In this document: positions 20,215 through 61,700 of the stretch, piece after piece
How positions within the stretch are numbered: the first letter of the stretch is position 1
Layout of the letters: each line of letters opens with the position of its first letter
Source of the DNA: an uncultured Gammaproteobacteria bacterium
GTDB lineage: Bacteria > Patescibacteriota > Microgenomatia > Daviesbacterales > UBA10151
DNA: 64,000 nt
Direction: 5' to 3'
NCBI GenBank assembly: GCA_964396715.1
Contig: CAYNFQ010000002.1
Location: 2,234 to 66,233, forward strand
Translations under genes and position numbers: made by a program
The notes under the pieces: model-generated
Told to the model about the DNA's origin: nothing
Seen by the model: the letters and a program-made list of their open reading frames with translations, nothing else
Databases searched by the model: none

Positions 20215-20270
20215 TAGGTAGGGTATAGCGTATAGAGAATAGGGTATAGTTGAATCTTCATAACTATAAG

Positions 20271-20660
20271 CTAAACGCTACTGACTAAACGCTTACTAAT
20301 ACCTCCTTTCTCTCTGTATACCATGACGCATAACATCTTGATGACTTCTAATAGTAATTCCTCCGATTTGCTAAAGCTCTCAGTTGGCGCTAACTGGAGT
20401 TCTTTAGAAATAACAAGCTGAGTATCCAATTCTAAAGCAGATCCGTAAGCAATAGCGTAAAATTGTAAGTATTCTTTATGTGATCGTCTAGCATAACCCT
20501 CTGCTATATTAGAAGGAATAGAAATTACTGCTCTGTGAATCTGTGAAATAATAACAAATTGCTCATTTCTGGGAAACAACGATGTTAATTTATATACCTC
20601 TTTGACTAATTGTATAGATTTTTGCCAGACAATTAATTCTTTATATGATTGTATTTTCAT
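20271..20660 (-). CDS. four-helix-bundle protein of the 23S rRNA intervening-sequence family (TIGR02436-like), copy 1
   Basis: WQKS...IAEGYAR...EYLQFYAIAYGSALELDTQL motif pattern; flanked by CTATACGCTAAACGC-type inverted repeats. Confidence 0.75.
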   Translation of the reverse strand: MKIQSYKELIVWQKSIQLVKEVYKLTSLFPRNEQFVIISQIHRAVISIPSNIAEGYARRSHKEYLQFYAIAYGSALELDTQLVISKELQLAPTESFSKSEELLLEVIKMLCVMVYREKGGISKRLVSSV

Positions 20661-20865
20661 AACTATACGCTAAACGCTACTCTCTATACGCTTCGTTATA
20701 CAATGTGAAAAAAATAATGGCAAGCAGCACAAAGGGGATCATTATGGGACAAATATGGTTAAATGACAAAATCCAAATGCCAAATTACAAATGAAATCTT
20801 AATTTCAAATTTTAAATTTTAGTCATTTGATATTGGAAATTTGAAATTCTTATGTTATTCTTAAT

Positions 20866-21053
20866 TTGTGGTGCACTAGTCCGATGTCATATCGGACCAA
20901 GGTGCAAAAAGGGAATCCGGTTAAAATCCGGAGCTGTGCCGCAACTGTGATTAGTTAGAGAATAGTAAATAGCGTACAGCGTTTAGTTATAAACAACTAT
21001 ACGCTAAACGCTTCTCTCTATACCCTAACTTTAAGTCAGGAGACCGACCACAA
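20866..21053 (+). ncRNA. cobalamin (B12) riboswitch
   Basis: Core AAGGGAATCCGGTTAAAATCCGGAGCTGTGCCGCAACTGTGA. B12-box-like AGTCAGGAGACCGACC. P1 candidates TTGTGGT/ACCACAA. Lies in the 5' leader of 21078..21986. Confidence 0.6.
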
Positions 21054-21077
21054 TTTAGATCCCGTAGCAGGAAAAAT

Positions 21078-21986
21078 ATGTCAGTTCAACAACTTGAAAG
21101 AGAACAATTACCAACTTTTTATTCCCAGAAAGCTGAAGAGCATGCCTCCCGTGTTTTAGAAACCCACAGGATTCCTGATCCCTATTATTTTTTAATAGAT
21201 CAAGATGGTGATTTATTTTCTCCGTCAGCACACTTAAAGGTTAGGGAGAAAATAGATACCAGTACAAGAGTAGGGATGTTGGAAGCTCAAGCATTTCAGG
21301 AGACCTCTCATTGGGCATCTGGTGCCGAAGCTGGTGCAAGTGCCTGGGTTAGCCCACCAGGACATTATCCTGTCTCCAAAATTATTATAAGCGAGATTGA
21401 GAAAGTTAATGGAGTAAAAAGGATTTTTAATAGAGCAATAGTTTTGGATATTAATGAAAGCGAGTGTTTGGATTTAGGACGAAGGCTTAGTGCTTATTCA
21501 CTAAATCAGCCGTTTTTGACCTATTCAGACCAGTTAAGAAGTACTCCAATAATATTGGACACAAAAGAAAAAAATTGGCTTGAGATTATGGAAGAGGTAA
21601 TGCCTGATTCTTTTTTGTGGGAGAGTATTAGAAGAGGGGATGAGGTGATTGCCAAACAAGCAGCTTTAGCAGAAGCAGAAAGAATTTTTGCCAAATATAG
21701 AGTGCCTGGAAGAGATCACAATGACTATGCTGATAATAGAGAGATGCAGAGGGATATGCAAAGCATGCTGGGAGATAAACCGGAAAGCTGTCCTCCCAGA
21801 CTATCTTCTGGTGCGGGGCAAACTGCTTTTCAGGTTTTTTCTGAAAACGCCTTGACATTTAGTAGTTCAGCAAACAAAGACCCTGATTTTTGCGAGGTTT
21901 GTCCTGCCTGTGAAGAAATAATTAATTGTGTTGTTAAAACAGGTAGCAGTTGTCCTAAATGCGGAGCAGTCAAAAGATGTGGTTGA
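21078..21986 (+). CDS. hypothetical protein with C-terminal CxxC...CxxC zinc-ribbon; putative B12-riboswitch-controlled gene
   Basis: 302-aa ORF with AGGA RBS; C-terminal CEVCPACEE...CPKCG motif; no recognisable family. Confidence 0.5.
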   Translation: MSVQQLEREQLPTFYSQKAEEHASRVLETHRIPDPYYFLIDQDGDLFSPSAHLKVREKIDTSTRVGMLEAQAFQETSHWASGAEAGASAWVSPPGHYPVSKIIISEIEKVNGVKRIFNRAIVLDINESECLDLGRRLSAYSLNQPFLTYSDQLRSTPIILDTKEKNWLEIMEEVMPDSFLWESIRRGDEVIAKQAALAEAERIFAKYRVPGRDHNDYADNREMQRDMQSMLGDKPESCPPRLSSGAGQTAFQVFSENALTFSSSANKDPDFCEVCPACEEIINCVVKTGSSCPKCGAVKRCG

Positions 21987-22165
21987 CAAAGTTAGCTAAG
22001 TTAGAAACTTATAGAAATTGGTAGAAATAAATGGAAATACAGTAGATATATAATAGAAATTAACTGAACAATTTTATCGCTAGTACTTACAAATCTAAAG
22101 AAAAGCAATAAATTTCAATTTATTTCGCAAACTTTGTTTGCATATTTCTATCTGTTTCCGATCTC

Positions 22166-22300
22166 TTTTGTCAGAATTTTAAGACGCGCAAGCGTCGCAA
22201 GCTCCGCTTATCAGTTTAATATCAAGCACTTCGACTACGCTCAGTGTAAACTTTTTCCAAGAATTGACACCAGGTTTGGGAAATTCTATGCTGGTTTAGC
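22166..22300 (+). repeat. dispersed promoter-bearing repeat, copy A (short variant)
   Basis: Shares ATCAGTTTAATATCAAGCAC...TGTTTGGGAAATTCTATGCTGG with three other loci. Ends in TTGACA-17nt-TATGCT. Confidence 0.7.
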
Positions 22301-22963
22301 ATTAAGTAATAATTTATTTGCCTGATTAACAAAATATTCTATCATCCCTTCTTTATTAAAAGGCACCAGTATTTTCGGGAAATCCTTCAGGTTATTTACC
22401 TCAAGAAGCATATGCGCAAAATAAAATTCGGAAAGCCCTAAATCTTTCTTTTTTGCATCCTGTAAAAGTTTATCAAATGTAAATATTTTTCTTTGAATGA
22501 TGAAATATAAATCAATAAAATCTTTAGCTTCAGTTCTCCCTAAAATAGCCGTCATTTTATTGCTACCAATATTTTCAATTGAATCAACCCTTATTCTGCC
22601 GAAATTTTTTATCTGGCCAAAATGTACAGGCTGTTCTCTGACAAAGTCAATTTTTAACTCTTTACCCTTGCCGATTAGAAAAAAAAGGTGGAAGTTTACT
22701 GTAGCCACACGATGATCCAGTTTAGTATTTGTTTGTTTTGCTATATCTGTCAATACTGCCTTAATGGAATTAACTTCAATATCCTCAAAGGTGAAAAGAT
22801 CAAGATCAATACTTCTACGGTGTTTGAAATAAAAACCTGCAAGAGCAGTACCTCCTGTCAGGAAATACTTTTTCCCTATAGTTTTTTCGAAAAAAAGATC
22901 AAGGACAGTTTGTTGTAAATTAGTGAGAGGAGTGTCTTTTTTCATCTTTATTCCATAAATCAA
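22286..22963 (-). CDS. nucleotidyltransferase AbiEii/AbiGii-family toxin (DUF1814)
   Basis: GGTALAGFYFKHRRSIDLDLF motif. Confidence 0.7.
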   Translation of the reverse strand: MIYGIKMKKDTPLTNLQQTVLDLFFEKTIGKKYFLTGGTALAGFYFKHRRSIDLDLFTFEDIEVNSIKAVLTDIAKQTNTKLDHRVATVNFHLFFLIGKGKELKIDFVREQPVHFGQIKNFGRIRVDSIENIGSNKMTAILGRTEAKDFIDLYFIIQRKIFTFDKLLQDAKKKDLGLSEFYFAHMLLEVNNLKDFPKILVPFNKEGMIEYFVNQANKLLLNAKPA

Positions 22964-23195
22964 GTGTATAATCCCATATTTTTTTGATTTGTGGACGCAC
23001 TTTTAGATAAGGAAAGTAAGTTTTTAGCTGGGATAAGGTAACATAGCGCCAGATTGTTTCATAAGGAAGATTTTCAATAATTCTCCCAATAATCCAAATC
23101 TTTTGCTTTTTTGTACCAGACTTAAGTTTGGAAAGCAATTCATTTTCAGAAAAATTATAATCCCAGAATGCCTGGGCAATAGAAACCTGTTTCAT
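22920..23195 (-). CDS. hypothetical protein in antitoxin position upstream of AbiEii (short AbiEi-like partner?)
   Basis: 91-aa ORF overlapping the AbiEii start; no clear motif. Confidence 0.3.
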   Translation of the reverse strand: MKQVSIAQAFWDYNFSENELLSKLKSGTKKQKIWIIGRIIENLPYETIWRYVTLSQLKTYFPYLKVRPQIKKIWDYTLDLWNKDEKRHSSH

Positions 23196-23244
23196 ATAAA
23201 CTATTTTATCATAAGTGAGATCATTTTGTCTTCTAGCCTCCTTT

Positions 23245-23400
23245 CCGTCAGAATTTTATCAGTTTAATATCAAGCACATTATTAGTTTATCGTTTATCGT
23301 AAGATCGTTTATTGGTAACGATATCCGATATACAAAGAGGTCCGTTTTTTCGGACCGTTACGATAAACAATTTGACACAATGTTTGGGAAATTCTATTTT
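23245..23400 (+). repeat. dispersed promoter-bearing repeat, copy B (long variant)
   Basis: About 150 bp near-identical to copy C. Nested inverted repeats GTTTATCGTAA/TTACGATAAAC, GATCGTT/AACGATATC and GGTCCG/CGGACC. Ends in TTGACA-17-TATTTT. Confidence 0.7.
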
Positions 23401-23460
23401 GGTTCTTGACACCAGTCTTAACAATATACTAAAATCCGTATACTGGTAAGTGATGAATGG

Positions 23461-23817
23461 TTGGTAGTTTTTTATGTTGAGGAAAACGGTAATGAGCCAG
23501 TAAGGAAATTTCTTAGCAGCCTTGATTTAAAAACACAAGCCAGATTTAATTGGTCAATTGAACAGTTAAAGATAAGGAATGTGACTGCTAGGGAACCATT
23601 AGTCCGCCATCTTGAGGATAAGATTTGGGAGTTGCGTGAGGAGAGCAGCACCAATATCTTCAGATTGTTGTACTTTTTCTTTACCGGCAAGCAGATTGTA
23701 TTTGTTCATGGGTTTGTTAAGAAAAAACAGAAAACTTCTCGTAGTGAGATTAAAACCGCACTTGAACGAATGAAAGATTTTAGCAAAAGGTATGCAGAAT
23801 TAGAAGAGAGGAGGTGA
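23461..23817 (+). CDS. higB: HigB/Gp49-like (RelE/ParE superfamily) toxin
   Basis: ...IWELREES..FRLLYFF.GKQIVFVHGFVKKKQKT pattern. Confidence 0.65.
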   Translation: MVVFYVEENGNEPVRKFLSSLDLKTQARFNWSIEQLKIRNVTAREPLVRHLEDKIWELREESSTNIFRLLYFFFTGKQIVFVHGFVKKKQKTSRSEIKTALERMKDFSKRYAELEERR

Positions 23818-24167
23818 ATATAATGAAAAGCAAACATAATGTAGTAATGGAAGGTAAAAAGAGTTATCGTAATTGGCAAAGGAAGCTAGTGGAAAATCCG
23901 GGCTATTCAGCTATCTATCAAGAAGAGGCTGCCAAAAAGCAGTTATGGCTACAATTGGTAGAAGCTCGCCAAAAGGTAGGGTTAACCCAGCAAGAAATGG
24001 CTAGAAGGTTAGGTGTCTCACAAGCCCAAGTGGCCAGAATTGAAAAACGTGGCTATGAAACATACACCCTGACTAGTCTTCGTCGTTATATTCAGGCGTT
24101 GGGTAAGGGGTTCTCTTTACAAGTTACTATTTATAGACCTGCAGAATATACAACAGCATACCGTTAA
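23814..24167 (+). CDS. higA: HigA-like XRE-family HTH antitoxin
   Basis: HTH LTQQEMARRLGVSQAQVARIE; overlaps the toxin stop. Confidence 0.7.
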   Translation: MNIMKSKHNVVMEGKKSYRNWQRKLVENPGYSAIYQEEAAKKQLWLQLVEARQKVGLTQQEMARRLGVSQAQVARIEKRGYETYTLTSLRRYIQALGKGFSLQVTIYRPAEYTTAYR

Positions 24168-24196
24168 AGTAAGAGCACCAGAGAATAGTTTTATCC

Positions 24197-24362
24197 TGAA
24201 ATCCGTCAGGATTTAATCAGTTTAATATCAAGCACATTATTAGTTTATCGTTTATCGTAAGATCGTTTATTGGTAACGATATCCGATATACAAAGAGGTC
24301 CGTTTTTTCGGACCGTTACGATAAACAATTTGACACAATGTTTGGGAAATTCTATGCTGGAT
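24197..24362 (+). repeat. dispersed promoter-bearing repeat, copy C (long variant)
   Basis: Near-identical to copy B; ends in TTGACA-17-TATGCT. Confidence 0.7.
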
Positions 24363-24482
24363 ATATAGCTATCAGTCATCAGACGTCAGTCGTCAGACAA
24401 AAAATCTGAAAGCTGAAGACTGAAAGCTGAAAGCTAATTTAAGGCCATGGAATTTTCCAGACGGAAATGGTAAAATTGTTTC

Positions 24483-24737
24483 ATGAATACAGTAACATTA
24501 CCAATCTCTATTATTGAAAGAGTAGAAAAAAAGCTCTATTCTGCTTTAGAGGAAGTTCGTGCGCTTAAAAGAGTAAGCTCAAGAAGAAGCTCTAAACCAG
24601 TTCATTTCTGGACAAAAGCTCAATGGGAAAAGGCAGAAAAAGAAGCTGATGAAGATATTGCTGCCGGGCGGGTAGTAGGCCCATTTAAGAGCGCTAAAGA
24701 TTTAATCGAATCCTTGCATAGAGAAGCCGGGGTTTAG
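24483..24737 (+). CDS. putative antitoxin partner of the downstream RelE-family toxin
   Basis: 84 aa, acidic C-terminus, immediately upstream of a RelE-like ORF. Confidence 0.4.
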   Translation: MNTVTLPISIIERVEKKLYSALEEVRALKRVSSRRSSKPVHFWTKAQWEKAEKEADEDIAAGRVVGPFKSAKDLIESLHREAGV

Positions 24738-24749
24738 TCAAGTATTTTA

Positions 24750-25007
24750 ATGTTTCAGTCATACTTCAGTAAAAAATTCACAAAGCAGTATTCAAAATTA
24801 CCACTTTCTACCCGGAATAAATTTGACAAACAGATTCAATATCTTCTTTCGGACTTAAGACACCCCTCTATTCATGCCAAGAAAAAGCAAGGAGAAGTAG
24901 ATGTTTGGGAAGGGAGAGTTGATAGATTTTACAGATTCACCTTTACTCTTTCGGAGGATGTAATTACTCTACGTGCAATAGGTCCACATGATGAGGCACT
25001 AGATTAA
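24750..25007 (+). CDS. RelE/ParE (YafQ-like) mRNA interferase toxin
   Basis: K.F.K.....L......KQGEVDVWEGRVDRFYRFTF...DVITLRAIGPHD pattern. Confidence 0.6.
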   Translation: MFQSYFSKKFTKQYSKLPLSTRNKFDKQIQYLLSDLRHPSIHAKKKQGEVDVWEGRVDRFYRFTFTLSEDVITLRAIGPHDEALD

Positions 25008-25039
25008 TTTCAATTTTAGCCTTAAATTCATCAGGATTT

Positions 25040-25130
25040 TGTAAGGAATAAATCAAGCAGTTTGACTCCGCTCAATGTAAACTTATCCCGGACTTGCAAA
25101 GATGTTTGGGAAATTCTATGCTGAAGTTAG
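25040..25130 (+). repeat. dispersed promoter-bearing repeat, copy D (short variant)
   Basis: Same conserved ends; TTGCAA-17-TATGCT promoter pointing into the 1391-aa ORF. Confidence 0.65.
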
Positions 25131-25272
25131 GGACTAGGGATTAGCAACTAGGGTTTAGTAAAAACAAACTATACCCTAAACCCTACACCCTATACCCAAA
25201 AAAAGGCCATGGAATTTTCCCAAGTATAATTGTAGAAAGTTATAACCTTGAGCGAAGCCGAAAGGGAAAAAT

Positions 25273-28200
25273 ATGGCAGAAAGATTAAGCATGGCAGAAG
25301 CAACATCCGGCCCAGGGCCAGAAGCTACACCTCCTGTGGGTGAGGGTCAAGCTGTCCCTCAATCATCAGGTGAATTAAGTCCTCAAAGACCCTGGCATAT
25401 CTCAAAAGAGTTTGATCCTAAAAGGACAGATTATACTTCAAGGGAAGAAGGGAACTGGAATATTTTTGTTGACCCTAAAACAAACAAAGAAGTAGCAAGG
25501 GCAATAAAAATGTCAGGAGGGGCAGATAAAGAAGATGGTGAATACTATGATGGTTCGCAAGAAAAACCAAAAGAATGGTGGCCTTTCACAGAGGATGAAT
25601 GGAAAAATCTTGACATTAAGGATAGGATAGTTGAGGCTGCAGTTTTGGCAATGCGGCATTATTATGACATGGATAATGTAGATAGAGCAGCTAAAGAAAA
25701 AGAATTTTCCATGGCCTATCAAGATTTTTCAGAATACGCTTTGGGTAAAAAACTTTATGACGGAAAAGATACCCGGGTTATTGCACTAGAGTTAGAACTG
25801 GTGAGCTTTGATAAAACAGAAATAGAAAAATATAAAGCAGATCCCGAAAAACAAGGACAGATTGAAGAAGCTCTAAATAACCTGGATGCTCTTGAACATG
25901 AGCAAGCCGGTATTCAAAATGCCTGGAAGGATTACGGCATTACAGATCAAAATAAGAATGATGATCAGTTACGCCCCCCGCATGTTGCACAAGATGAATG
26001 GAAGAAGTATTTGGAAGGAAAGGATGAGATTAAGACAAGATTAGAAGCAGCAAAACAGGCACTTGTAGCTTTAACCAGCCAGGAATTTTTCAATAAAAGA
26101 GAAAAAATCAAAATAGAAGTTGGAGATAAAGTCAAAGAATTAAAAGAAGAAATGGAGAAAAAAGAAAAGGAAGCAAAAAAAGAAGGTGTCCGGGTTGATG
26201 CAGAACAATGGGAGATAGATGCATATAAATTGGAGAAAGAATTGGAAAGAAGCTTATTACAGGGGACAGAAGTCTCTTCGGATCCAGATAAATCGGATGC
26301 TGATGTACCAGTTGAAGAAATACTTAGGTTTATAAAAGAAGAAGGAGAAAAGCCTGTTGCCGAACAATATACAACTGGTTTGGAACGGGCAAAAAAAGTT
26401 CTGGAATGGAATTTTCATGAGGCAAGAAAGCTTGGCATTCTGGAAGATTTGGAAGAAAGGTTTGAGGAAAGATATAAGGAACTGGCAACAGCCGTATTTT
26501 CCAAAAGCAGGACTGATCAGGGTGATACGGAGATTGAAACAAGAAGAGGTCCTCGTAATCTGACCATTGCCGAGATAAAAGAAACATTAGCCAGAGAAGC
26601 AGATGAGCGTAATCCGAATTCGCTCTCAAATACGGCAGAATCAGATACTTTCTGGAAATATCTTGTTAGAGACGGTCTTGTACCCGGAGACAGAGTAAAT
26701 CATTTTAAGGGCATCAGAAAAGCCTTTGTTGACGGGACATATGATCAAATATATGATTCTTTGTCTAACTTATATAATCGCTATAGAGCGGATGAGCTAA
26801 GAGGAAAATTGCAGCAGCAGTTAGACCGGGATGTAATAACTCAACAGCAATATGACAGAAGAATCAATGAAATAAACAACCCAAGAAATATACAAAGGAT
26901 ATCCGGAGAATGGGATGTCCGGAAATATGAAAGAGATATAATGGCCGGTCTGGATAATGAAGAGAGGGCAGAAGCAGGAAGGTTATTTTATATAGACAGG
27001 TATTACCTTACTTTAACAGGCACAACAGAAGCGCAGATTGAACAGGGTGTAAATAATTATCTGACAAGCATTTTGGAAGGAGCGCATGTTTATGATGTTC
27101 AAACAATAATGCAGAAAATGCAATATTTATCTCAGGCTATCATGTCAAAAAAAGATGTTCTTATGCAGTCCGGTATGTCAGCAACTGATGCCCAGGCAGC
27201 CTTAACCAGAATCAATATACTCGCAGAAAACAGGGGAGAATTCTATGTTATGAATTTTTCCGCGCAGAATCTTTTGATGGATGAATACTTTATTCCTTTA
27301 TATGATAAATGGGGGGGAGTGAAAGGGATTGAAAAACTGAAAGAGAGTTTGGATATGAATGATGGTTTAATTGCACCGTGTATGCTTTTGTTTTTAGATA
27401 AAAAGAACCGTTTATTATTTCAACCGGCCGGATTTAAAGGGCAGGGCATGAAAAATATTTGGGCCCAGAGAACCCTGCGGGATAAAATTAAAGGGCAGAT
27501 AGCAGAAGAGCTGGTAAATTTTCAGGCTAAAAAAGCCAATTCTACGGAATTGATGGAACAAGCCACATGGCAGGATTTCTTAAGAATGAAGTTTGAAAAA
27601 AGGTGGGATAAAAAAGATGAACAAGATAATAAAATATTTTTTAAACCAAAAGAGGAAACAGATGCTGCTAAAAAAGCATATCAGGCTGAATATATGCGGG
27701 TTAAAACGGCAGCAAAGCCTGAAGATTTGGAAAGTCTAAAAAGGTTAAGGGAGGAGTACACAAAACAAAAGAATAGGTACGATAGATTGTTGGATCGGGC
27801 CAAAAGCGCTGTTGAGACTACTTGGCAGGTGTTCAATATTTTTGGAGAATCAGCCCGTCTTGGTGCCCCTTCAATAATCATGCGTAACGGTGACCATATC
27901 AGCATTGAGGATGCAACTTATTTCTATAAATTCGTTCTATTGGATGCAATGAAGAAAAGCGGAGATACCCCGGCAATGATGAGGTGGAGAGCCTATCAAT
28001 GGGTTAAGAACCACAGGCAAAGCGAAAAAAATCCAGTTATAAAAGACGGTGTGACTACTTATGAATTAGTTGCAGGACTTGAAGATACAGGGATAACAAA
28101 AGGGGAATACGATGAATTTTTGAAAGCAGTTAAGGAGTTGAGGCTAAACGGTTATAAAGCAGCATTTAGGGAATACAGTTTTGAAGAAATTATCAGCAGA

Positions 28201-29448
28201 AATGATGTCAGACCTGTTAGGAATAATTTTATCAGTAACTATAAATCATCCAGAGAGATATTTGCTAATCCAACAGCCATGAGAGAAGCCAAAAAAGGCA
28301 GACAGCCTTTCATAAAGAATATTCTGGAAAGGTTAGACCGTTCCGGCAGGGGTCAATTTACGGCCCTGGATAGGGCAAAGATAGATGGGAAGCCTTTAGA
28401 TGGGAAGCCTTTAGATGGGAAGCCTTTAGATAAAGTACCGGACGAAAGATTAAAAGAGATTTTTGAAGATGCAATCACGGATTCTTTTGTATTCCATATT
28501 ACTGCCAGGCAATTAGCTCTCTGGGAGGCAACCTTGGAATCTTCTGTGGATGCTCAAGATAATATTGTTTACACAGATAAATTTTCCACTGGCCGGATTT
28601 ACTATGGTAGTCAGGATATCCCCTGGGGAGTTAAGAGACTGCAATATCTGCCGGAATACTGGATGACTAATAAAAGGGAAAGAATAGGCAGGGCATGGAA
28701 ACTTTTGCCATTTGTCCCTCTTTTGAAATCCGGTCTTGCCCAGGAATGTGACGCAGAAAATCTGCCGGATCTGATTCTTAATGTTAATAAAGAACATATT
28801 GATGAGCCGGGACTTAAACAAATAGCAGCAGGTTATAAAGATGCGCAGGGTTGGAGACAGCGGGGGGAGACATCAGTGGATGAACAAAGAGGGGAAACAA
28901 ATTGGGCCTGGTGGGATAAGCTGACAGTAGATGCAGCTCAGATTCTTAAAACTTTACCACAATTAGACTTTCCTCCACAATCTAAAAATGATGCTACAAA
29001 ATTAGGCATATTTGATTATATTATTGATGTACCTAACCCAGAAGAATTTATGAAGAATCATCCAATCCCGTTTGCTTCTAGAAAGGTGCTTGTTGATACA
29101 GCTAGGGAAATACTTAAAAGAGAAGCACCATTAAATGTTTTCCTGGAGGCTCAACTGGGTTATAACCGGAGCGCAGGAGGTTCCGGAATAGGCCTTGAAA
29201 TGGGTGAGAGATGGCATTACAGGATATTAAACTGGTGGTTATCAGAAGTACCAGGTGATATAGATAATAAAAGAGGCACGGAAGGAGGATTAGAAGTTAA
29301 CAGTGATGCTGCAATATTCCTAAAGTTTATTACTATCAAAAATAGCTGGTCAGCAGGTGTATCTATTTTAGACGAGGCATGGAGGCAGGCGCGGGGTACT
29401 CGTGATGCCGGTGCTTCTGATAAATTGCCGCAGGAAATTATTACTTAA
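25273..29448 (+). CDS. giant hypothetical protein (1391 aa), K/E-rich, predicted alpha-helical/coiled-coil, no signal peptide
   Basis: Uninterrupted 4.2-kb ORF with AGGGAAAAATATG RBS. Contains a (DGKPL)x3 15-bp tandem repeat at 28384-28428. No catalytic motif recognised. Confidence 0.6.
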   Translation: MAERLSMAEATSGPGPEATPPVGEGQAVPQSSGELSPQRPWHISKEFDPKRTDYTSREEGNWNIFVDPKTNKEVARAIKMSGGADKEDGEYYDGSQEKPKEWWPFTEDEWKNLDIKDRIVEAAVLAMRHYYDMDNVDRAAKEKEFSMAYQDFSEYALGKKLYDGKDTRVIALELELVSFDKTEIEKYKADPEKQGQIEEALNNLDALEHEQAGIQNAWKDYGITDQNKNDDQLRPPHVAQDEWKKYLEGKDEIKTRLEAAKQALVALTSQEFFNKREKIKIEVGDKVKELKEEMEKKEKEAKKEGVRVDAEQWEIDAYKLEKELERSLLQGTEVSSDPDKSDADVPVEEILRFIKEEGEKPVAEQYTTGLERAKKVLEWNFHEARKLGILEDLEERFEERYKELATAVFSKSRTDQGDTEIETRRGPRNLTIAEIKETLAREADERNPNSLSNTAESDTFWKYLVRDGLVPGDRVNHFKGIRKAFVDGTYDQIYDSLSNLYNRYRADELRGKLQQQLDRDVITQQQYDRRINEINNPRNIQRISGEWDVRKYERDIMAGLDNEERAEAGRLFYIDRYYLTLTGTTEAQIEQGVNNYLTSILEGAHVYDVQTIMQKMQYLSQAIMSKKDVLMQSGMSATDAQAALTRINILAENRGEFYVMNFSAQNLLMDEYFIPLYDKWGGVKGIEKLKESLDMNDGLIAPCMLLFLDKKNRLLFQPAGFKGQGMKNIWAQRTLRDKIKGQIAEELVNFQAKKANSTELMEQATWQDFLRMKFEKRWDKKDEQDNKIFFKPKEETDAAKKAYQAEYMRVKTAAKPEDLESLKRLREEYTKQKNRYDRLLDRAKSAVETTWQVFNIFGESARLGAPSIIMRNGDHISIEDATYFYKFVLLDAMKKSGDTPAMMRWRAYQWVKNHRQSEKNPVIKDGVTTYELVAGLEDTGITKGEYDEFLKAVKELRLNGYKAAFREYSFEEIISRNDVRPVRNNFISNYKSSREIFANPTAMREAKKGRQPFIKNILERLDRSGRGQFTALDRAKIDGKPLDGKPLDGKPLDKVPDERLKEIFEDAITDSFVFHITARQLALWEATLESSVDAQDNIVYTDKFSTGRIYYGSQDIPWGVKRLQYLPEYWMTNKRERIGRAWKLLPFVPLLKSGLAQECDAENLPDLILNVNKEHIDEPGLKQIAAGYKDAQGWRQRGETSVDEQRGETNWAWWDKLTVDAAQILKTLPQLDFPPQSKNDATKLGIFDYIIDVPNPEEFMKNHPIPFASRKVLVDTAREILKREAPLNVFLEAQLGYNRSAGGSGIGLEMGERWHYRILNWWLSEVPGDIDNKRGTEGGLEVNSDAAIFLKFITIKNSWSAGVSILDEAWRQARGTRDAGASDKLPQEIIT
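28384..28428 (+). repeat. 15-bp in-frame tandem repeat x3 (DGKPL) within the 1391-aa ORF
   Basis: GATGGGAAGCCTTTA x3. Confidence 0.85.
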
Positions 29449-31295: not shown

Positions 31296-31676
31296 TTATA
31301 CAAATTCCAAATCTTTAATTCCCTGAAAATCTTTTTTATTTAAAGTGGCAAAAGAGGCTTTGTTAATGATGGCTGTGGCGGCAATAGCCGCATCTGCAAG
31401 ATCTAACCTAGAGATACTGTCTCTGGCAATTTCGCCTGCAAGTTTGGCTACTTCATATGTATAGGATAGAATCTTAAACAAGGAAATTGTATTTATCAGT
31501 TTTTTGTGACGTACTTCATCTTTAATGCTTTTCCCTTCATAAAGTTCTTGGATAGTGATTATAGAAATTGTCAGGTTTTTTTGTGGGTACTTATTGGCAA
31601 GCTTTCTTAAATGTGTTAGTTTATCATCCGGCTGACGTAAATGATCAATAATAATGCTGGTATCTACGATTACCAT
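31296..31676 (-). CDS. vapC: PIN-domain toxin VapC
   Basis: IVDTSIIID...D...ATAI PIN acidic residue pattern; overlaps the upstream antitoxin. Confidence 0.7.
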   Translation of the reverse strand: MVIVDTSIIIDHLRQPDDKLTHLRKLANKYPQKNLTISIITIQELYEGKSIKDEVRHKKLINTISLFKILSYTYEVAKLAGEIARDSISRLDLADAAIAATAIINKASFATLNKKDFQGIKDLEFV

Positions 31677-31975
31677 GCCTTTTTTCTTTCTCTGGATGCT
31701 TTAAGCTCAATTTTCCTTCTTCTTTTTTCTGTTTCAGGCCAGTCATCTCCTGCCCAGGCTCCTTGTGTGCTTTTCAGAATTTCAAGGAAAACTTCTCTCT
31801 TATTGCTTTTTTCTTCCTCAGTCACCACCTCATTTACCGGGTACATATGTATTCCGCCATTGCTGACGATCACATTTAAAAGTTGACCTGCAGAAATATT
31901 TAAATCATCCCTGATTTTTTTAGGAATGACAATCTGACCTTTTATGTTTGGGGTGACTATTGTGCCAATATTCAT
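31670..31975 (-). CDS. vapB: AbrB/MazE/SpoVT-type antitoxin VapB
   Basis: KGQIVIPKKIRDDLNISAGQLL swapped-hairpin motif. Confidence 0.6.
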   Translation of the reverse strand: MNIGTIVTPNIKGQIVIPKKIRDDLNISAGQLLNVIVSNGGIHMYPVNEVVTEEEKSNKREVFLEILKSTQGAWAGDDWPETEKRRRKIELKASRERKKAW

Positions 31976-59648: not shown

Positions 59649-59733
59649 TCGCACCTTAAATTTTATTTCTTTGTACAGTTTATATATTGTATTTTTATAC
59701 ATTTTACATTGTAAATTGTACATTGACCTATAT

Positions 59734-59997
59734 TCCCCTGTAGCTCAACGGTAGAGCGGGATCCTGTAAAATATTGCAGCTTCTTCGAAAAATCGGAGTT
59801 GAAAAATTGGGTTAATTGTCGGGAAACCTTTAAAATGGTAATCCGCAGCCAAGGTCCGATGTAATATCGGACAAGGTTCAGAGACTATACGCCTGAAGCC
59901 TAAAGCGAAAGCAATGGTTATGAGATAGTCCAAGTCCTGATGAAAATCGGGAGCACTTGTAAGATCAAGGTTCGTGGTTCGAATCCACGCGGGGGAG
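59734..59997 (+). tRNA. tRNA-Asn(GUU) interrupted by a 192-nt group-I-like intron (exons 59734-59767 and 59960-59997)
   Basis: Exons assemble to TCCCCTG-TA-GCTC-AACGGTA-GAGC-G-GGATC-CTGT^TAA-GATCA-AGGTT-CGTGG-TTCGAAT-CCACG-CGGGGGA-G, closely resembling E. coli tRNA-Asn. 5' exon ends in U and the intron ends in G. Confidence 0.6.
59768..59959 (+). ncRNA. group-I-like intron in the tRNA-Asn anticodon loop
   Basis: AAUCCGCAGCCAAG...AAGGUUCAGAGACUAUAC ... GAUAGUCC P7 pairing. Candidate P1 between exon CUGU and intron GCAG. Confidence 0.55.
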
Positions 59998-60023: not shown

Positions 60024-61700
60024 TTAGGCAATAGCGGGAATAAGGGAGGGTCTGACTTTCTCTATGTCTTCTCTTATCTGTTGTACTAGTCTAAAATCCT
60101 CAAATGTTTTGATAGTACATGCTAATTGTGCAGTTGTATTAAAGTTATGATTCTCGGCACTTGTTACACCAAGGTGAGCCTCATTAAGAACCTGAAGTGC
60201 CGGTGTATATTCAACTTCCACGATTTTCTTGTCTTTTGCCCATATCTTTTGAAAGAAGAAGTGCAGGTAGGCCCTTTTATGGTCTATATCAGCTTTAGCA
60301 TAGCTTCTAGCGATATTTCTAGTTAATTCCAATACGTCATTTACTACCGATATATCAACTGTTCTTATCTTCTCTACCTCTGCTAATTCCTTTTGAATAG
60401 CAAGCATTTCTGCATCTAATTTAGCATTAAGCCTTAGCAGTAATTCAGCAGGTATCTTGTTATTACCATAATCGGTTTCTATCTTTTCTTTTCTCATTTC
60501 AATAGCATCGCGCCTGTTACAGATACCCTTTCTGAAAACTTTTACTCTCTCAATACTGTCTGTATAAACCTCATTTATGTATTTATTAACTGCATCAATG
60601 AAATCTTGCTTAAATTCCAGTTTTTCAACTTGATCCTGTACTTGCTGTTCGAGATCAGTTAGCAATACATACCTTGAGGGACACTTGCCACGTTTCCCAG
60701 TTTGACTGCAGTGGTACATTCCAATTCGGCCATTACCTGTTTTATATTTTTCGTGATAGTGCCATTCAGCCACATACCTGCGACCACAGTCTTTACAAAA
60801 TACAATTCCCCTAAGCAGAAAGTTGTGTTTTCTTTTTCTCAATCCAAAAGCACCCTTTTCATCCAGGATTTTCTGTACTAAATCAAAAGTTTCTTTATCA
60901 ATTATTGGCTCATGCTTACCCATACCCTCCAAACCTCCATGATGCATCCAACCCCAATGAAATTTGTTTCTTAACATTGTGTGAGTAACTGAAAATTGTA
61001 ATGGTCTTCCTTTCTTGCCCAAAACACCATGCTTATTTAGATACTGCCGAATATCGTAAATTGAATAGTTACGAGTTGCATACATTTTAAATGCTTGAGT
61101 AATAAACGGAGCAGAGTTAGGGTCAGGGACTACAATTTTTTTATCATAAGAACCACTTGGGTTAGGATTAAGTATGTTTTTATAGCCTAAAGGAGCAACG
61201 GAAGGATAATAACCTGCTTTGAATTTCTCTGCGGCTGTTTGTTTGACTTTGAAGCTGGTCATTCGTGGATGCAGGGCATTTACGACCGCCATCATTTCAT
61301 CCATTGTCTGGCTTATTGGATCGTCATCAACTATTCCTGTGAGGGGAATGACTTTAACTCCGAATTTTTTCAACTCACTTTTGATATATAGGTATTCGAA
61401 AGTATTGCGGGAGATACGGGAGCTATCTTGAACGATTAAATAGTCAATGTCTTTTTTAGAACACCTAGCTAAAAGAGCTTGGAGTCCTGGCCTATTCATC
61501 GAAGTTCCCGATATGCCATTATCAATGTAACAATCTTCGGCAAGATAACCACCTAAATCTTCTATCTTTTCGAGTATCTTTATCTGCTGGGTTTCAATGC
61601 TTAGATTATCCTTTTGTTCCAACGTAGATACCCGGCAATATGAAAGACAGGCAGGTTTTTTATTGTTTTCGCTGATTGTTTGGTTATCTGATGATCGCAT
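60024..61700 (-). CDS. large serine recombinase (resolvase/invertase N-domain + recombinase + zinc-ribbon domains)
   Basis: Catalytic CLSYCRVSTLEQ...; approximately 560 aa typical of phage/ICE serine integrases. Confidence 0.85.
   Translation of the reverse strand: MRSSDNQTISENNKKPACLSYCRVSTLEQKDNLSIETQQIKILEKIEDLGGYLAEDCYIDNGISGTSMNRPGLQALLARCSKKDIDYLIVQDSSRISRNTFEYLYIKSELKKFGVKVIPLTGIVDDDPISQTMDEMMAVVNALHPRMTSFKVKQTAAEKFKAGYYPSVAPLGYKNILNPNPSGSYDKKIVVPDPNSAPFITQAFKMYATRNYSIYDIRQYLNKHGVLGKKGRPLQFSVTHTMLRNKFHWGWMHHGGLEGMGKHEPIIDKETFDLVQKILDEKGAFGLRKRKHNFLLRGIVFCKDCGRRYVAEWHYHEKYKTGNGRIGMYHCSQTGKRGKCPSRYVLLTDLEQQVQDQVEKLEFKQDFIDAVNKYINEVYTDSIERVKVFRKGICNRRDAIEMRKEKIETDYGNNKIPAELLLRLNAKLDAEMLAIQKELAEVEKIRTVDISVVNDVLELTRNIARSYAKADIDHKRAYLHFFFQKIWAKDKKIVEVEYTPALQVLNEAHLGVTSAENHNFNTTAQLACTIKTFEDFRLVQQIREDIEKVRPSLIPAIA

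Follow-up and report, generated by a model that had tools for sequence, protein, structure and literature searches.

Copies of a giant-gene leader separate toxin-antitoxin modules at a putative recombination hot spot in Daviesbacteria-like genomes

Introduction

In sedentary integrons and in CALINs, small modules lie co-linearly, each of them followed by a repeat with conserved ends and a variable middle; self-promoted toxin-antitoxin modules are found in the array, and its content varies between relatives. An IntI adjoining the array is not required for a CALIN. The locus analyzed here, located in a window of 64 kb (the whole stretch of DNA that was analyzed) from an uncultured Daviesbacteria (CPR) genome, shares these features, as its modules lie between copies of one repeat, named U, and vary in content in related genomes. 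However, the array has neither an IntI nor the R''/R' attC consensus, and two of its U copies (A and D) lack an overall hairpin. In addition, U, at 125-190 nt, bears a promoter and serves the next gene as its leader, and the junction positions vary.

Tandem integrative elements sharing one att site (CIME-type elements and SCC composite islands) are comparable in that direct repeats made of a piece of the target flank the inserts, that the replacement copy keeps the target gene intact, and that the remnants are devoid of recombination genes. In the present locus, part of the target is likewise duplicated and the target restored, the direct repeat corresponding to the leader of the big gene behind it (LG) together with at most some 8 codons of that gene. 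Nevertheless, the inserts are here only one toxin-antitoxin pair long, the array has no integrase, and the repeats are much longer than the usual att cores. Rhs/CDI orphan toxin-immunity arrays resemble the locus in that a stored module keeps a fragment, of variable length, of the conserved part of the main gene, in that modules are thought to enter via one homologous and one illegitimate junction, and in that the main gene is hypervariable past its conserved part. The conserved fragment is in our case a 5' leader with a few codons, with the modules upstream, and these modules are independent toxin-antitoxin operons with their own start codons instead of alternative C-terminal ends. Finally, the pdif modules of Acinetobacter plasmids are small toxin-antitoxin or accessory modules placed between copies of a short site in varied contexts, also lacking a recombinase of their own, but pdif sites are 28-bp XerC/D sites of alternating orientation, whereas the U repeats are direct and long; no pdif-type XerC/D site was recognised at the U array. 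Literature searches returned no published description of a leader-bounded array.

Results

The window contains four copies of U (A to D), all in one orientation. The features of the locus, with positions in the window, are as follows:

20852-21986, plus strand: cobalamin riboswitch (20852-21066) and a 302-aa ORF with a C-terminal zinc ribbon; left border of the putative hot spot
21975-22165, plus strand: decayed remnant of an older module, starting with TTGACAAAGTTAGCTAAGTTAG, the promoter of a Phd-VapC module
22170-22294, plus strand: U copy A; GTCAGAATTTT; TTATCAGTTTAATATCAAGCAC; short core; TTGACA (22264)-N17-TATGCT (22287-22292); GG
22286-23195, minus strand: module 1; AbiEii-family nucleotidyltransferase toxin (22286-22945/22963) and an overlapping 91-aa partner (22920-23195)
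23233-23402, plus strand: U copy B; CCGTCAGAATTTT; ATCAGTTTAATATCAAGCAC; heptamer-hairpin core of about 90 nt (23278-23368); TTGACA (23372)-N17-TATTTT; GG
23403-24190, plus strand: module 2; Gp49/HigB-like toxin (23461-23817) and HTH (HigA-like) antitoxin (23814/23847-24167)
24191-24360, with 5'UTR to 24472, plus strand: U copy C; TTGACA (24330)-N17-TATGCT (24353-24358)
24483-25007, plus strand: module 3; 84-aa ORF (24483-24737) and 85-aa ORF (24750-25007)
25017-25123, with 5'UTR to 25272, plus strand: U copy D; CATCAGGATTTT; GTAAGGAATAAATCAAGCAG; short core; TTGCAA (25094)-N17-TATGCT (25117-25122)
25273-29448, plus strand: LG, 1391 aa, starting MAERLSMAE

All four copies proposed in an earlier, sequence-only reading of this DNA were recovered, and so was their common 3' end. 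The repeats are genuine and far above chance: the 3' 20-mer GTTTGGGAAATTCTATGCTG matches in each of the four copies at up to 2 mismatches, and in none of the shuffled sequences (0/100). No further copies were found in the 64 kb by the 20-mer search or by nhmmer, and in every other genome matched U was likewise found at this locus only. The common 5' end described in the same reading stands for A, B and C, which carry the 19-mer ATCAGTTTAATATCAAGCA, but D has GTAAGGAATAAATCAAGCA, and only ATCAAGCA and the upstream (C)ATCAGGATTTT box, which is present in D as well, are common to all.

The copies differ mainly by insertions. Copy A has a 27-nt GC-hairpin insert at 22181-22207 and stops after GG, without the 5'UTR part. 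Over 140 nt (23258-23397 and 24216-24355), copies B and C do not differ at all; the three-stem structure attributed to this pair does exist as a block restricted to B and C, but it is really a heptamer-repeat insert of about 90 nt in place of the short core. In C and D the repeat is longer than was first stated: beyond a heptamer hairpin insert, both copies resume with AAGGCCATGGAATTTTCC (24441 in C, 25203 in D), the 5'UTR of LG. In copy C, the heptamer-repeat hairpin insert occupies approximately 24364-24436 and is followed by the 5'UTR block AAGGCCATGGAATTTTCCAGACGGAAATGGTA (24441-24472), while in copy D the insert (approximately 25127-25198) is followed by the 5'UTR GGCCATGGAATTTTCC...GGGAAAAAT, which reaches the ATG of LG. 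Copy D is the resident leader of the big gene.

U is the conserved leader of LG and not a free-standing modular element; the "promoter-plus-insulator unit" of the sequence-only reading gives way to a leader of the downstream large gene that is confined to one locus and not dispersed. From 5' to 3', it comprises a GTCAGGATTTT box, a ATCAAGCA box, a variable core, a promoter within an inverted repeat and, as its 3' part, the 5'UTR with the first codons of the gene, up to about 8 (ATGGCAGAAAGAcTTATGGCAGAA). The GTCAGGATTTT and ATCAAGCA(C) boxes lie about 11 nt apart and in register. The spacer of U tolerates insertions, and GTCAGGATTTT is a recurrent target of small hairpin insertions with target duplication. 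An invariant 16-mer, GTTTGGGAAATTCTAT, divides the variable -35/core side from the module-linked side. U is more conserved than the big gene behind it and than any neighbouring gene, and it could thus help to trace, in metagenomes, the cargo of this secretion-like system, which is variable. As for LG itself, no match was obtained in Pfam, NCBIfam or PDB sequence searches, its homologues form just 6 clusters, and the AlphaFold model of its C-terminal 741 aa is poor (pLDDT 49.8). In Daviesbacteria, LG closes a type-IV-secretion-like cluster near dnaA, and its first approximately 8 codons are part of the repeated unit in other genomes.

The predicted sigma-70-type promoter, TTGACA-N17-TATGCT, sits within the conserved inverted repeat GGGAAATTCTATG / CATGGAATTTTCC, which is kept with compensatory changes among orthologues. 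A promoter-like site with a 17-nt spacer is present as had been claimed, with A, B and C scoring 10/12 in the promoter scan, but the -10 of B is TATTTT and not TATGCT, and D, which has TTGCAA, falls under the threshold of 9/12. Across the region, 13 promoter-like matches were counted against a shuffled expectation of 11.4, i.e., their total is not raised. Orthologues retain the TTGACA-N17/18-TAnnnT geometry despite altered spacer sequence, for instance TTGACA-N18-TAAACT in locus L022.

Regarding structure, copy B folds better than its shuffles on both strands (z about -3.9) due to the inserted heptamer hairpin, which is common to C, whereas for A and D neither strand outperforms its shuffles (z from -0.6 to +0.6). 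None of the U copies belongs to an Rfam family. A terminator or insulator role of the 5' box was also considered but found no support: AAATCC-GTCA-GGATTT forms a hairpin in some of the copies, but the left hairpin arm changes in A, B, D, L007-1 and L010 with no compensating substitutions, and nothing was flagged at the box by the terminator scan. Moreover, the attC boxes (R'' RYYYAAC and R' GTTRRRY) were absent from 4/4 copies in a regex search of both strands, in agreement with the earlier description of an integron-like layout without attC; with this result, the lack of folding in A and D and the absence of an Rfam family, membership of U among integron attC sites was rejected.

The gene content is as previously described, namely AbiEii with a partner, a HigBA-like pair, and the 84-aa and 85-aa ORFs. 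Adjacent toxin and antitoxin genes with type II family signatures are present through AbiEii (Pfam E 9e-15) and Gp49/HigB (3e-26, partner HTH_3/HTH_37); the 91-aa partner of AbiEii has no family match, and the 84/85-aa pair has only a weak ParE/RelE-like match (E 0.05) for the 85-aa ORF. Module 1 lies on the strand opposite to the repeats, with AbiE antisense to copy A, and is also found upstream of a U copy in L016. Module 2 has its own predicted promoter (TTGACA-N18-TAAAAT, 23406-23435) and recurs in L012, L013 and L016, where it is 81-92% identical and placed behind different U variants. Module 3 has no promoter of its own, uses the 5'UTR of U and is probably read from copy C; in L022 it likewise adjoins the big gene. 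As HigBA and most modules in other genomes carry their own TTGACA promoters, it is plausible, judging from the predicted promoters, that only the 84+85-aa module and the big gene rely on the U promoter, which would be incidental for the other modules. The Phd-VapC module, of which the window keeps a remnant, survives intact in L011 and L007, and L008 and L012 have partly decayed versions.

U precedes the large gene in eight related Daviesbacteria-like loci (L007, L008, L010/L017, L011, L012, L016, L022 and L025), and exact-pattern scans of those genomes found it in the same syntenic position only, that is, between the riboswitch-controlled zinc-ribbon gene and the large gene, inside the type-IV-secretion-like cluster. 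The riboswitch/zinc-ribbon pair forms the border in every related locus. Most of these loci have 2-5 U copies, and the toxin-antitoxin or ATPase modules lying between the copies differ: the array is AbiE, HigBA, 84+85 in the window; AbiE, HigBA in L016; RelB-YafQ, MazE, HigBA, 84+85 in L022; four PIN modules in L011; and ATPase plus toxin-antitoxin modules in L007. Arrays differ between genomes by whole modules, in both set and order, and the modules measure 0.6-1.3 kb and consist of cargo only. The idea of a cassette array is, hence, borne out as far as the same repeats with different modules in relatives are concerned, but not as regards an independent unit. U alleles can differ within one array (A, B/C and D in the window, and in L007), meaning that the copies are not all local duplicates; in L022, U2 and U4 have one diverged promoter block in common. 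Carriage of U by phages or plasmids was rejected, since the 5'-box pattern gave 0 matches on viral contigs and the five matches of a 17-mer were all due to chance.

Ahead of more than 10 different modules, U begins at a sharply defined left edge, and the downstream edge is constant. Upstream copies stop at different points, namely behind the -35, TCTAT or TATGCTGG, within the second arm, or past codon ~8. Such variable upstream ends combined with a constant downstream edge are the pattern predicted from truncation or illegitimate joining. Many copies extend through the 5'UTR into the codons ATGGCAGAA..., where homology ends, and at least four unrelated modules have almost the same far junction, which lies around codon ~8-12 of LG. 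The junction ..TTATGGCAGAAG is directly followed by the module's own TTGACA in L007 (three modules), in L008 and L022, and at copy C of the window. Furthermore, a 725-nt tract is 100% identical between L008 and L011, although these derive from one co-assembly and the identity could in principle be an assembly artefact; it runs from within the phd gene into U, where it stops, and its flanks are 67-86% identical, with 67-80% identity for the flanking genes. The repeated unit is the leader, the arrays vary between genomes, and copies exchange by homology, as seen in this tract, in the 140 nt common to B and C and in the diverged promoter block of U2 and U4 in L022.

Discussion

We favor, with a probability of roughly one half, the interpretation that the locus is a recombination hot spot, with homology-anchored insertions into the LG leader whose copies then drive exchange and deletion. 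Accessory modules, in most cases promoter-bearing type II toxin-antitoxin pairs, would have recombined repeatedly into the leader, each insertion leaving a leader copy, whole or 3'-truncated, upstream of the insert and a whole one downstream. As the downstream copy is complete, the big gene would keep its promoter, and the outcome would be U-module-U-module-U-gene. The insertion step itself may be homology-anchored in one of two ways, either by single-crossover (Campbell-type) entry of a U-bearing DNA circle, or by an event in which one junction is homologous and the other illegitimate, following the proposal for Rhs/CDI orphan modules; as in that model, one-sided homology-facilitated recombination can duplicate U. 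The differing U alleles within one array speak against this interpretation. Later deletions would shorten the upstream copies, addiction is proposed as the reason why toxin-antitoxin modules are retained, and the U copies would then offer portable homology through which modules are deleted, converted or exchanged laterally. In this manner, an uncultured CPR bacterium with a tiny genome would store and exchange accessory genes without a visible integrase or transposase, one conserved leader in a secretion-system locus serving as both landing pad and portable homology. If the process were purely homology-driven, it would be a clear natural case of promoter-region repeats building and reshuffling toxin-antitoxin arrays, and would also account for the short-read assembly breaks at the locus.

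A possible, though on the whole doubtful, alternative is a dedicated site-specific cassette system, integron-like, in which the mobile unit is a module plus a U attachment site and circles enter at the resident U, the enzyme being a recombinase encoded elsewhere, such as the serine recombinase at 60024-61700, or an unrecognised one. The topology equals that of gene-attC arrays, and modules of 0.6-1.3 kb with cargo alone make whole-element decay an unlikely origin. The maximal repeat is sharp and recurrent at both edges, and recurrent junctions are predicted by a site-specific process and not by random illegitimate joining. The invariant GTTTGGGAAATTCTAT between the variable and module-linked sides, the compensatory changes in the inverted repeat, the conservation of U above all neighbouring genes and the insertion hot spot at GTCAGGATTTT point in the same direction, the target-duplicating hairpin insertions at this box being a hint of an enzyme acting there, and so does the large serine recombinase in the window. 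On the other hand, upstream junctions fall at five or more different positions, the single mappable recent exchange tract starts inside a gene, as in homologous recombination, and identities of 125-190 nt are neither needed nor created by serine or tyrosine recombinases; the attC consensus is also missing.

The search for an enzyme weighs against this alternative as well. An integrase or recombinase recognising the nested hairpins had been envisaged, but no integron integrase was found, and the sole recombinase in the window is the large serine recombinase mentioned above, 35 kb away. Tyrosine recombinases (Phage_integrase) were absent from the called genes of the contig at 1-35 kb and from all ORFs of 150 aa or longer as far as 64 kb, no integrase was found in the arrays of the window, L007, L011 and L022, and no recombinase was found within 30 kb of any array examined, nor in L022 +/-10 kb or the L011 context. 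Transfer between tandem nick sites by an oriT/relaxase system was set aside as pure speculation, as the window contains no relaxase or coupling protein and no array has a relaxase in it or nearby.

An unlikely elaboration of site-specific entry would be a Daviesbacteria cassette platform, integron-like but built differently. A hypervariable, secretion-associated giant gene would lend its 125-190-nt leader as the attachment site, and the unit would be a module together with one copy of this leader. The enzyme, either an unrecognised one or the distant serine recombinase, would work on the GTCAGGATTTT box and/or the GTTTGGGAAATTCTAT block, and the leader would also swap the giant gene between lineages. 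Were insertion site-specific, the locus would represent a second, independent answer to the problem that integrons solve.

It seems improbable that the arrangement is mainly a selected regulatory architecture, with leader copies supplying one regulated promoter/operator that co-regulates the modules with the big gene, and duplication being secondary. The promoter geometry and inverted repeat kept in orthologues, and module 3 with no promoter of its own on the U 5'UTR, would suit such a role, yet the -10, the second arm or the -35 is missing from many copies (mini-U and U3 in L011, U1 and U3 in L022), AbiE is antisense to copy A, most modules have their own promoter-operator, and copies decay.

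That U is a small non-autonomous MITE-like element with an outward promoter, bracketing genes by chance or as composite transposons, is very improbable: the weak 6-7-bp complementarity of its ends (AGAATTT / AAATTCT) and the promoter on board, as in Correia-type repeats, are outweighed by the lack of copies elsewhere in the 64 kb and on viral contigs, by the extension of U into the start codon of the big gene, by whole copies without target-site duplications, and by five other genomes and metagenome matches with U at this locus only and in one orientation; a dispersed repeat was rejected on the same ground, U being confined to one locus in the window and in every genome matched.

Hardly credible, finally, is an assembly artefact of the metagenome-assembled genome, through repeat-induced mis-joins or collapsed strains. 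Short-read assemblies do break at U, and L008 and L011 come from one co-assembly; independent assemblies breaking within U is, in fact, what a repeated leader is expected to cause. However, assemblies from NCBI, ENA, JGI and Logan, which derive from different samples and have different module sets, independently show the same architecture.

The repeats are copies of the large-gene leader

In agreement with the sequence-only reading, which had proposed that a promoter-bearing structured repeat delimits toxin-antitoxin mini-cassettes in an integron-like layout, the window contains four direct copies of one element (A to D) ahead of a large gene. The 3' 20-mer of the element matches four times in the window and never in shuffles, and profile searches of the whole window returned no further copies.

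22170-22294, copy A
23233-23402, copy B
24191-24360, copy C
25017-25123, copy D
25273-29448 (+), large gene, 1391 aa

Other parts of that description needed amendment. The 19-mer proposed as a common 5' end is absent from D. The sigma70 promoter was recovered in A, B and C (score 10/12, 17-nt spacer), but TATGCT is not universal, as B reads TATTTT, and the TTGCAA/TATGCT pair of D falls under the promoter-scan threshold. B and C do carry an extra block, although what had been taken for a three-stem structure is a heptamer-repeat insert of approximately 90 nt, present in these two copies only. B and C are identical across 140 nt; on folding, B was significant and A and D were not. C and D run on, past another heptamer-hairpin insert, into AAGGCCATGGAATTTTCC.

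Related loci were collected by scanning a single genome of each species for the exact pattern (four genuine loci: L007, L008, L010 and L011), by a metagenome-contig scan (five more: L012, L013, L015, L016 and L017, the last with the same sequence as L010), and through homologues of the large gene (L022, L025 and L032-L034), while L009, L014 and L018 were discarded as chance matches. In every locus, the repeated unit (U) lies directly 5' of a large gene, in a syntenic position common to all of them, and downstream of a zinc-ribbon gene controlled by a cobalamin riboswitch. The window repeats are copies of this leader.

Parts of U in the aligned copies
Part 1: (TAnCCTCAAAT)CCGTCAGGATTTT
Part 2: ATCAGGATTAAATCAAGCAC, with TCAGGATT-like direct repeats ~11 nt apart
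Part 3: variable core
Part 4: TTGACA-N17-TATGCT, including the invariant GTTTGGGAAATTCTAT
Part 5: ATAAAAGGCCATGGAATTTTCC...GGAAAAT
Part 6: ATGGCAGAAAGAcTTATGGCAGA, the start of the large gene (MAERLMAD/E)

An inverted repeat surrounds the -10 (GGGAAATTCTATG and CATGGAATTTTCC); it is kept with both arms changed in L022 and L033 (CCAAAGCTC / GAGTTTTTGG) and in L034 (TAGAAGTTCTATG / CATAGATTTCTA), and RNAalifold reported three pairs changed on both sides. These changes fit either a hairpin or an operator bound by a dimeric protein; an RNA hairpin of the transcript from the U promoter is ruled out, since that transcript would begin downstream of the first arm. Regulatory architecture as an explanation of the array is a weak alternative, which we consider doubtful. 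No Rfam family was detected in the U copies, nor was U detected on viral contigs.

Copy A has a 16-nt segment in its core, CTTCGACTACGCTCAG (window 22230-22245), which L013 also has and D has with base changes. Its exact reverse complement CTGAGCGTAGTCGAAG is present in L007 (1989-2004, 3424-3439 and 6642-6657) and in U4 of L022 (9811-9826), flanked by CA..TG, and represents a small inversion within the repeat.

Conserved leader and variable cargo

No other DNA of the locus is as well conserved as U. When the window was compared with L007 or L015 by blastn, only U copies matched in the array and large-gene region (78-82% identity over 93-114 nt), the secretion genes being 64-76% identical. Behind U, the large genes of the related genomes fall into three or more protein families that are not recognisable from one another.

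Families of the large gene
Family 1: window, L022 and L032-L034; L025 distantly
Family 2: L008 and L016; like the window protein in the first ~80 residues only
Family 3: L007 and L017; no significant similarity to the window protein

Leader and first codons are nearly identical despite these differing families, and U thus behaves as a conserved leader before variable cargo. Inside the large gene, window 28382-28431 holds three perfect tandem 15-nt units (DGKPL x3); the five homologues carry a single unit or lack it.

Profile searches revealed extra U copies, some degenerate, between the modules of other loci; modules measure 0.6-1.3 kb and contain cargo only. The zinc-ribbon gene borders the arrays on the left.

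Order of U copies and modules
Window: remnant, A, AbiE (reverse strand), B, HigBA, C, 84+85 aa, D, large gene
L016: AbiE, U, HigBA, U, large gene
L012: Phd remnant, U, HigBA, U, large gene
L022: zinc ribbon, RelB-YafQ, U, MazE pair, U, HigBA, degenerate U, 84+85-aa module (toxin decayed), U, large gene
L011: zinc ribbon, VapBC, mini-U, Phd-PIN, mini-U, third PIN pair, U, Phd-VapC, U, large gene
L007: ATPase, U, ATPase, U, toxin-antitoxin, U, Phd-VapC, U, ATPase, U, large gene

Module content undergoes turnover at this hot spot. Logan contigs with large-gene homologues start inside U (L033 exactly at CGTCAGGATTTT), and contigs from the window's own population also end at B or C; such breaks are a signature of the repeated leader, and an assembly artefact as the source of the array is extremely improbable.

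The two identical mini-U copies of L011 (2610-2655 and 1732-1780) have the GTCAGGATTTT box fused straight to TTGGGAAATTCTATGCTG, box 2, core and -35 being deleted, and this deleted form was evidently itself propagated within the array.

Junctions, recombination and small insertions

The U edge facing the upstream module stays constant in more than 15 junctions, which involve over 10 different modules, whereas the edge facing the downstream module is variable.

Downstream-facing junctions
After the -35 (CTTGCA joined to CTTGACA): L011 U3
In the promoter spacer: L022 U1
After TCTAT + 8 nt: HigBA in four genomes
After TATGCTGG: window A, L015, L022 U2
Inside the second arm: L011
After ..TTATGGCAGAAG, codon ~8-12, the module's own TTGACA following at once: L007 (three times), L008, first L022 module; in degenerate form, window C and L022 U3

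Because of the ..TTATGGCAGAAG junctions, the longest U extends from the left edge to approximately codon 8-12 of the large gene; the shorter ones seem to result from later deletion, or from joining at other points.

U copies recombine homologously. L008 and L011 have in common a 100% identical tract of 725 nt, which starts inside a phd gene (~80% identity before it) and ends at CCCGTCAGGATT in U, in genomes whose secretion genes are 67-80% identical; the module with this tract is the last of the L008 array and the second of four in L011. The tract reflects a recent homologous exchange, with the caveat that both bins come from one co-assembly. In addition, U2 and U4 of L022 have a diverged promoter block in common, and L007 has three similar copies (1, 2 and 3) besides two that represent different alleles. 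Together with the B/C identity, these patterns show that local duplication or conversion and the import of foreign U copies both occur.

GTCAGGATTTT is a hot spot of small hairpin insertions with target duplication.

Insertions at GTCAGGATTTT
28-nt unit: L007 (once), L016 (four times)
CCCCGATTCTATCGGGG: L007
~85-nt element: common to L012 and L025
GC hairpin: window A, L013, L022

Heptamer inserts, which resemble cyanobacterial STRR repeats, consist of serial 7-nt repeats and, after these, the inverted counterpart, giving long hairpins (for example CTGAAAG..., TAGGGAC.../CTAnACC and TTTATCG.../CGATAAA), and they occupy the two insertion-tolerant spacers of U.

Heptamer inserts
Window: 24364-24436; 25127-25198; 23278-23368 (= 24236-24326); 20216-20252 / 20994-21030
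L011: 110-185
L022: 9840-9920

Origin of the array and known systems

The most likely reading, to which we assign a probability of about 0.5, is that module insertion would be anchored by homology, that a complete downstream U copy would keep the large gene expressed, and that toxin-antitoxin addiction would bias which modules persist. Its main rival, a dedicated site-specific system with U as attachment site, draws on the sharp and recurrent U edges, the invariant 16-mer and the insertion hot spot, but we regard it as rather unlikely given that upstream junctions are scattered, that the mapped exchange tract ends gene-internally and that no recombinase lies nearby. In the window, neither an integron integrase nor any tyrosine recombinase was detected, nor a relaxase or coupling protein, and no transposase lies in or beside the array. 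A MITE origin is weak and very unlikely.

The array has a working layout similar to that of a chromosomal integron or attC cluster, but did not qualify as one in integron membership tests, and the repeat holds no attC consensus, as the sequence-only reading had noted. It shares target-segment duplication with att-site accretion, though without an integrase, and, as in Rhs/CDI orphan arrays, a fragment of a conserved region is kept beside a hypervariable main gene, although here the modules are independent operons located upstream of the gene. Since each of these systems fits only in part, the U array is classed as a repeat-bounded cassette array or hot spot.

A large serine recombinase (558 aa; Resolvase, Recombinase and Zn_ribbon_recom) is encoded 35 kb from the array, and no link between it and U was found.

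59671-59952, group I intron match (82 bits), just after rpoD, no tRNA called around it
60024-61700, serine recombinase, strand opposite the intron match

As G+C falls to 0.34-0.37 from 60 kb onward, an integrated element may have one of its ends in this region.

Setting of the locus

The locus is chromosomal, with dnaA and dnaN at ~9.8-13 kb of the window, and the array is surrounded by a type-IV-secretion-like cluster, comprising M23 peptidase, VirB4-like ATPase, TraC-like and PrgI-like genes on one side, and a 603-aa gene, a PIN-MazE pair, a second M23 peptidase and several T4SS_pilin genes on the other.

20271-20660, 23S_rRNA_IVP / bAvd-like four-helix-bundle gene
20852-21066, cobalamin riboswitch
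21078-21986, zinc-ribbon ORF
31296-31975 (-), MazE-PIN pair

Within this cluster, the riboswitch lies upstream of the gene for a protein without family assignment (302-487 aa), whose zinc ribbon is C-terminal (riboswitch in relatives: L008 2423-2599; L011 4810-5021; L016 4408-4610; L017 6806-6934; L022 5150-5229). The gene appears to be under B12 control, as the riboswitch-gene pair is kept in all related loci.

Extra toxin-antitoxin pairs are wedged among other genes of the cluster, namely the MazE-PIN pair of the window and the Phd-PIN and ParE pairs of L022 (20704-22190), and no U-like repeats were found around them. The 23S_rRNA_IVP / bAvd-like gene, near which no reverse transcriptase was found, is flanked by heptamer-repeat blocks arranged as an inverted pair.
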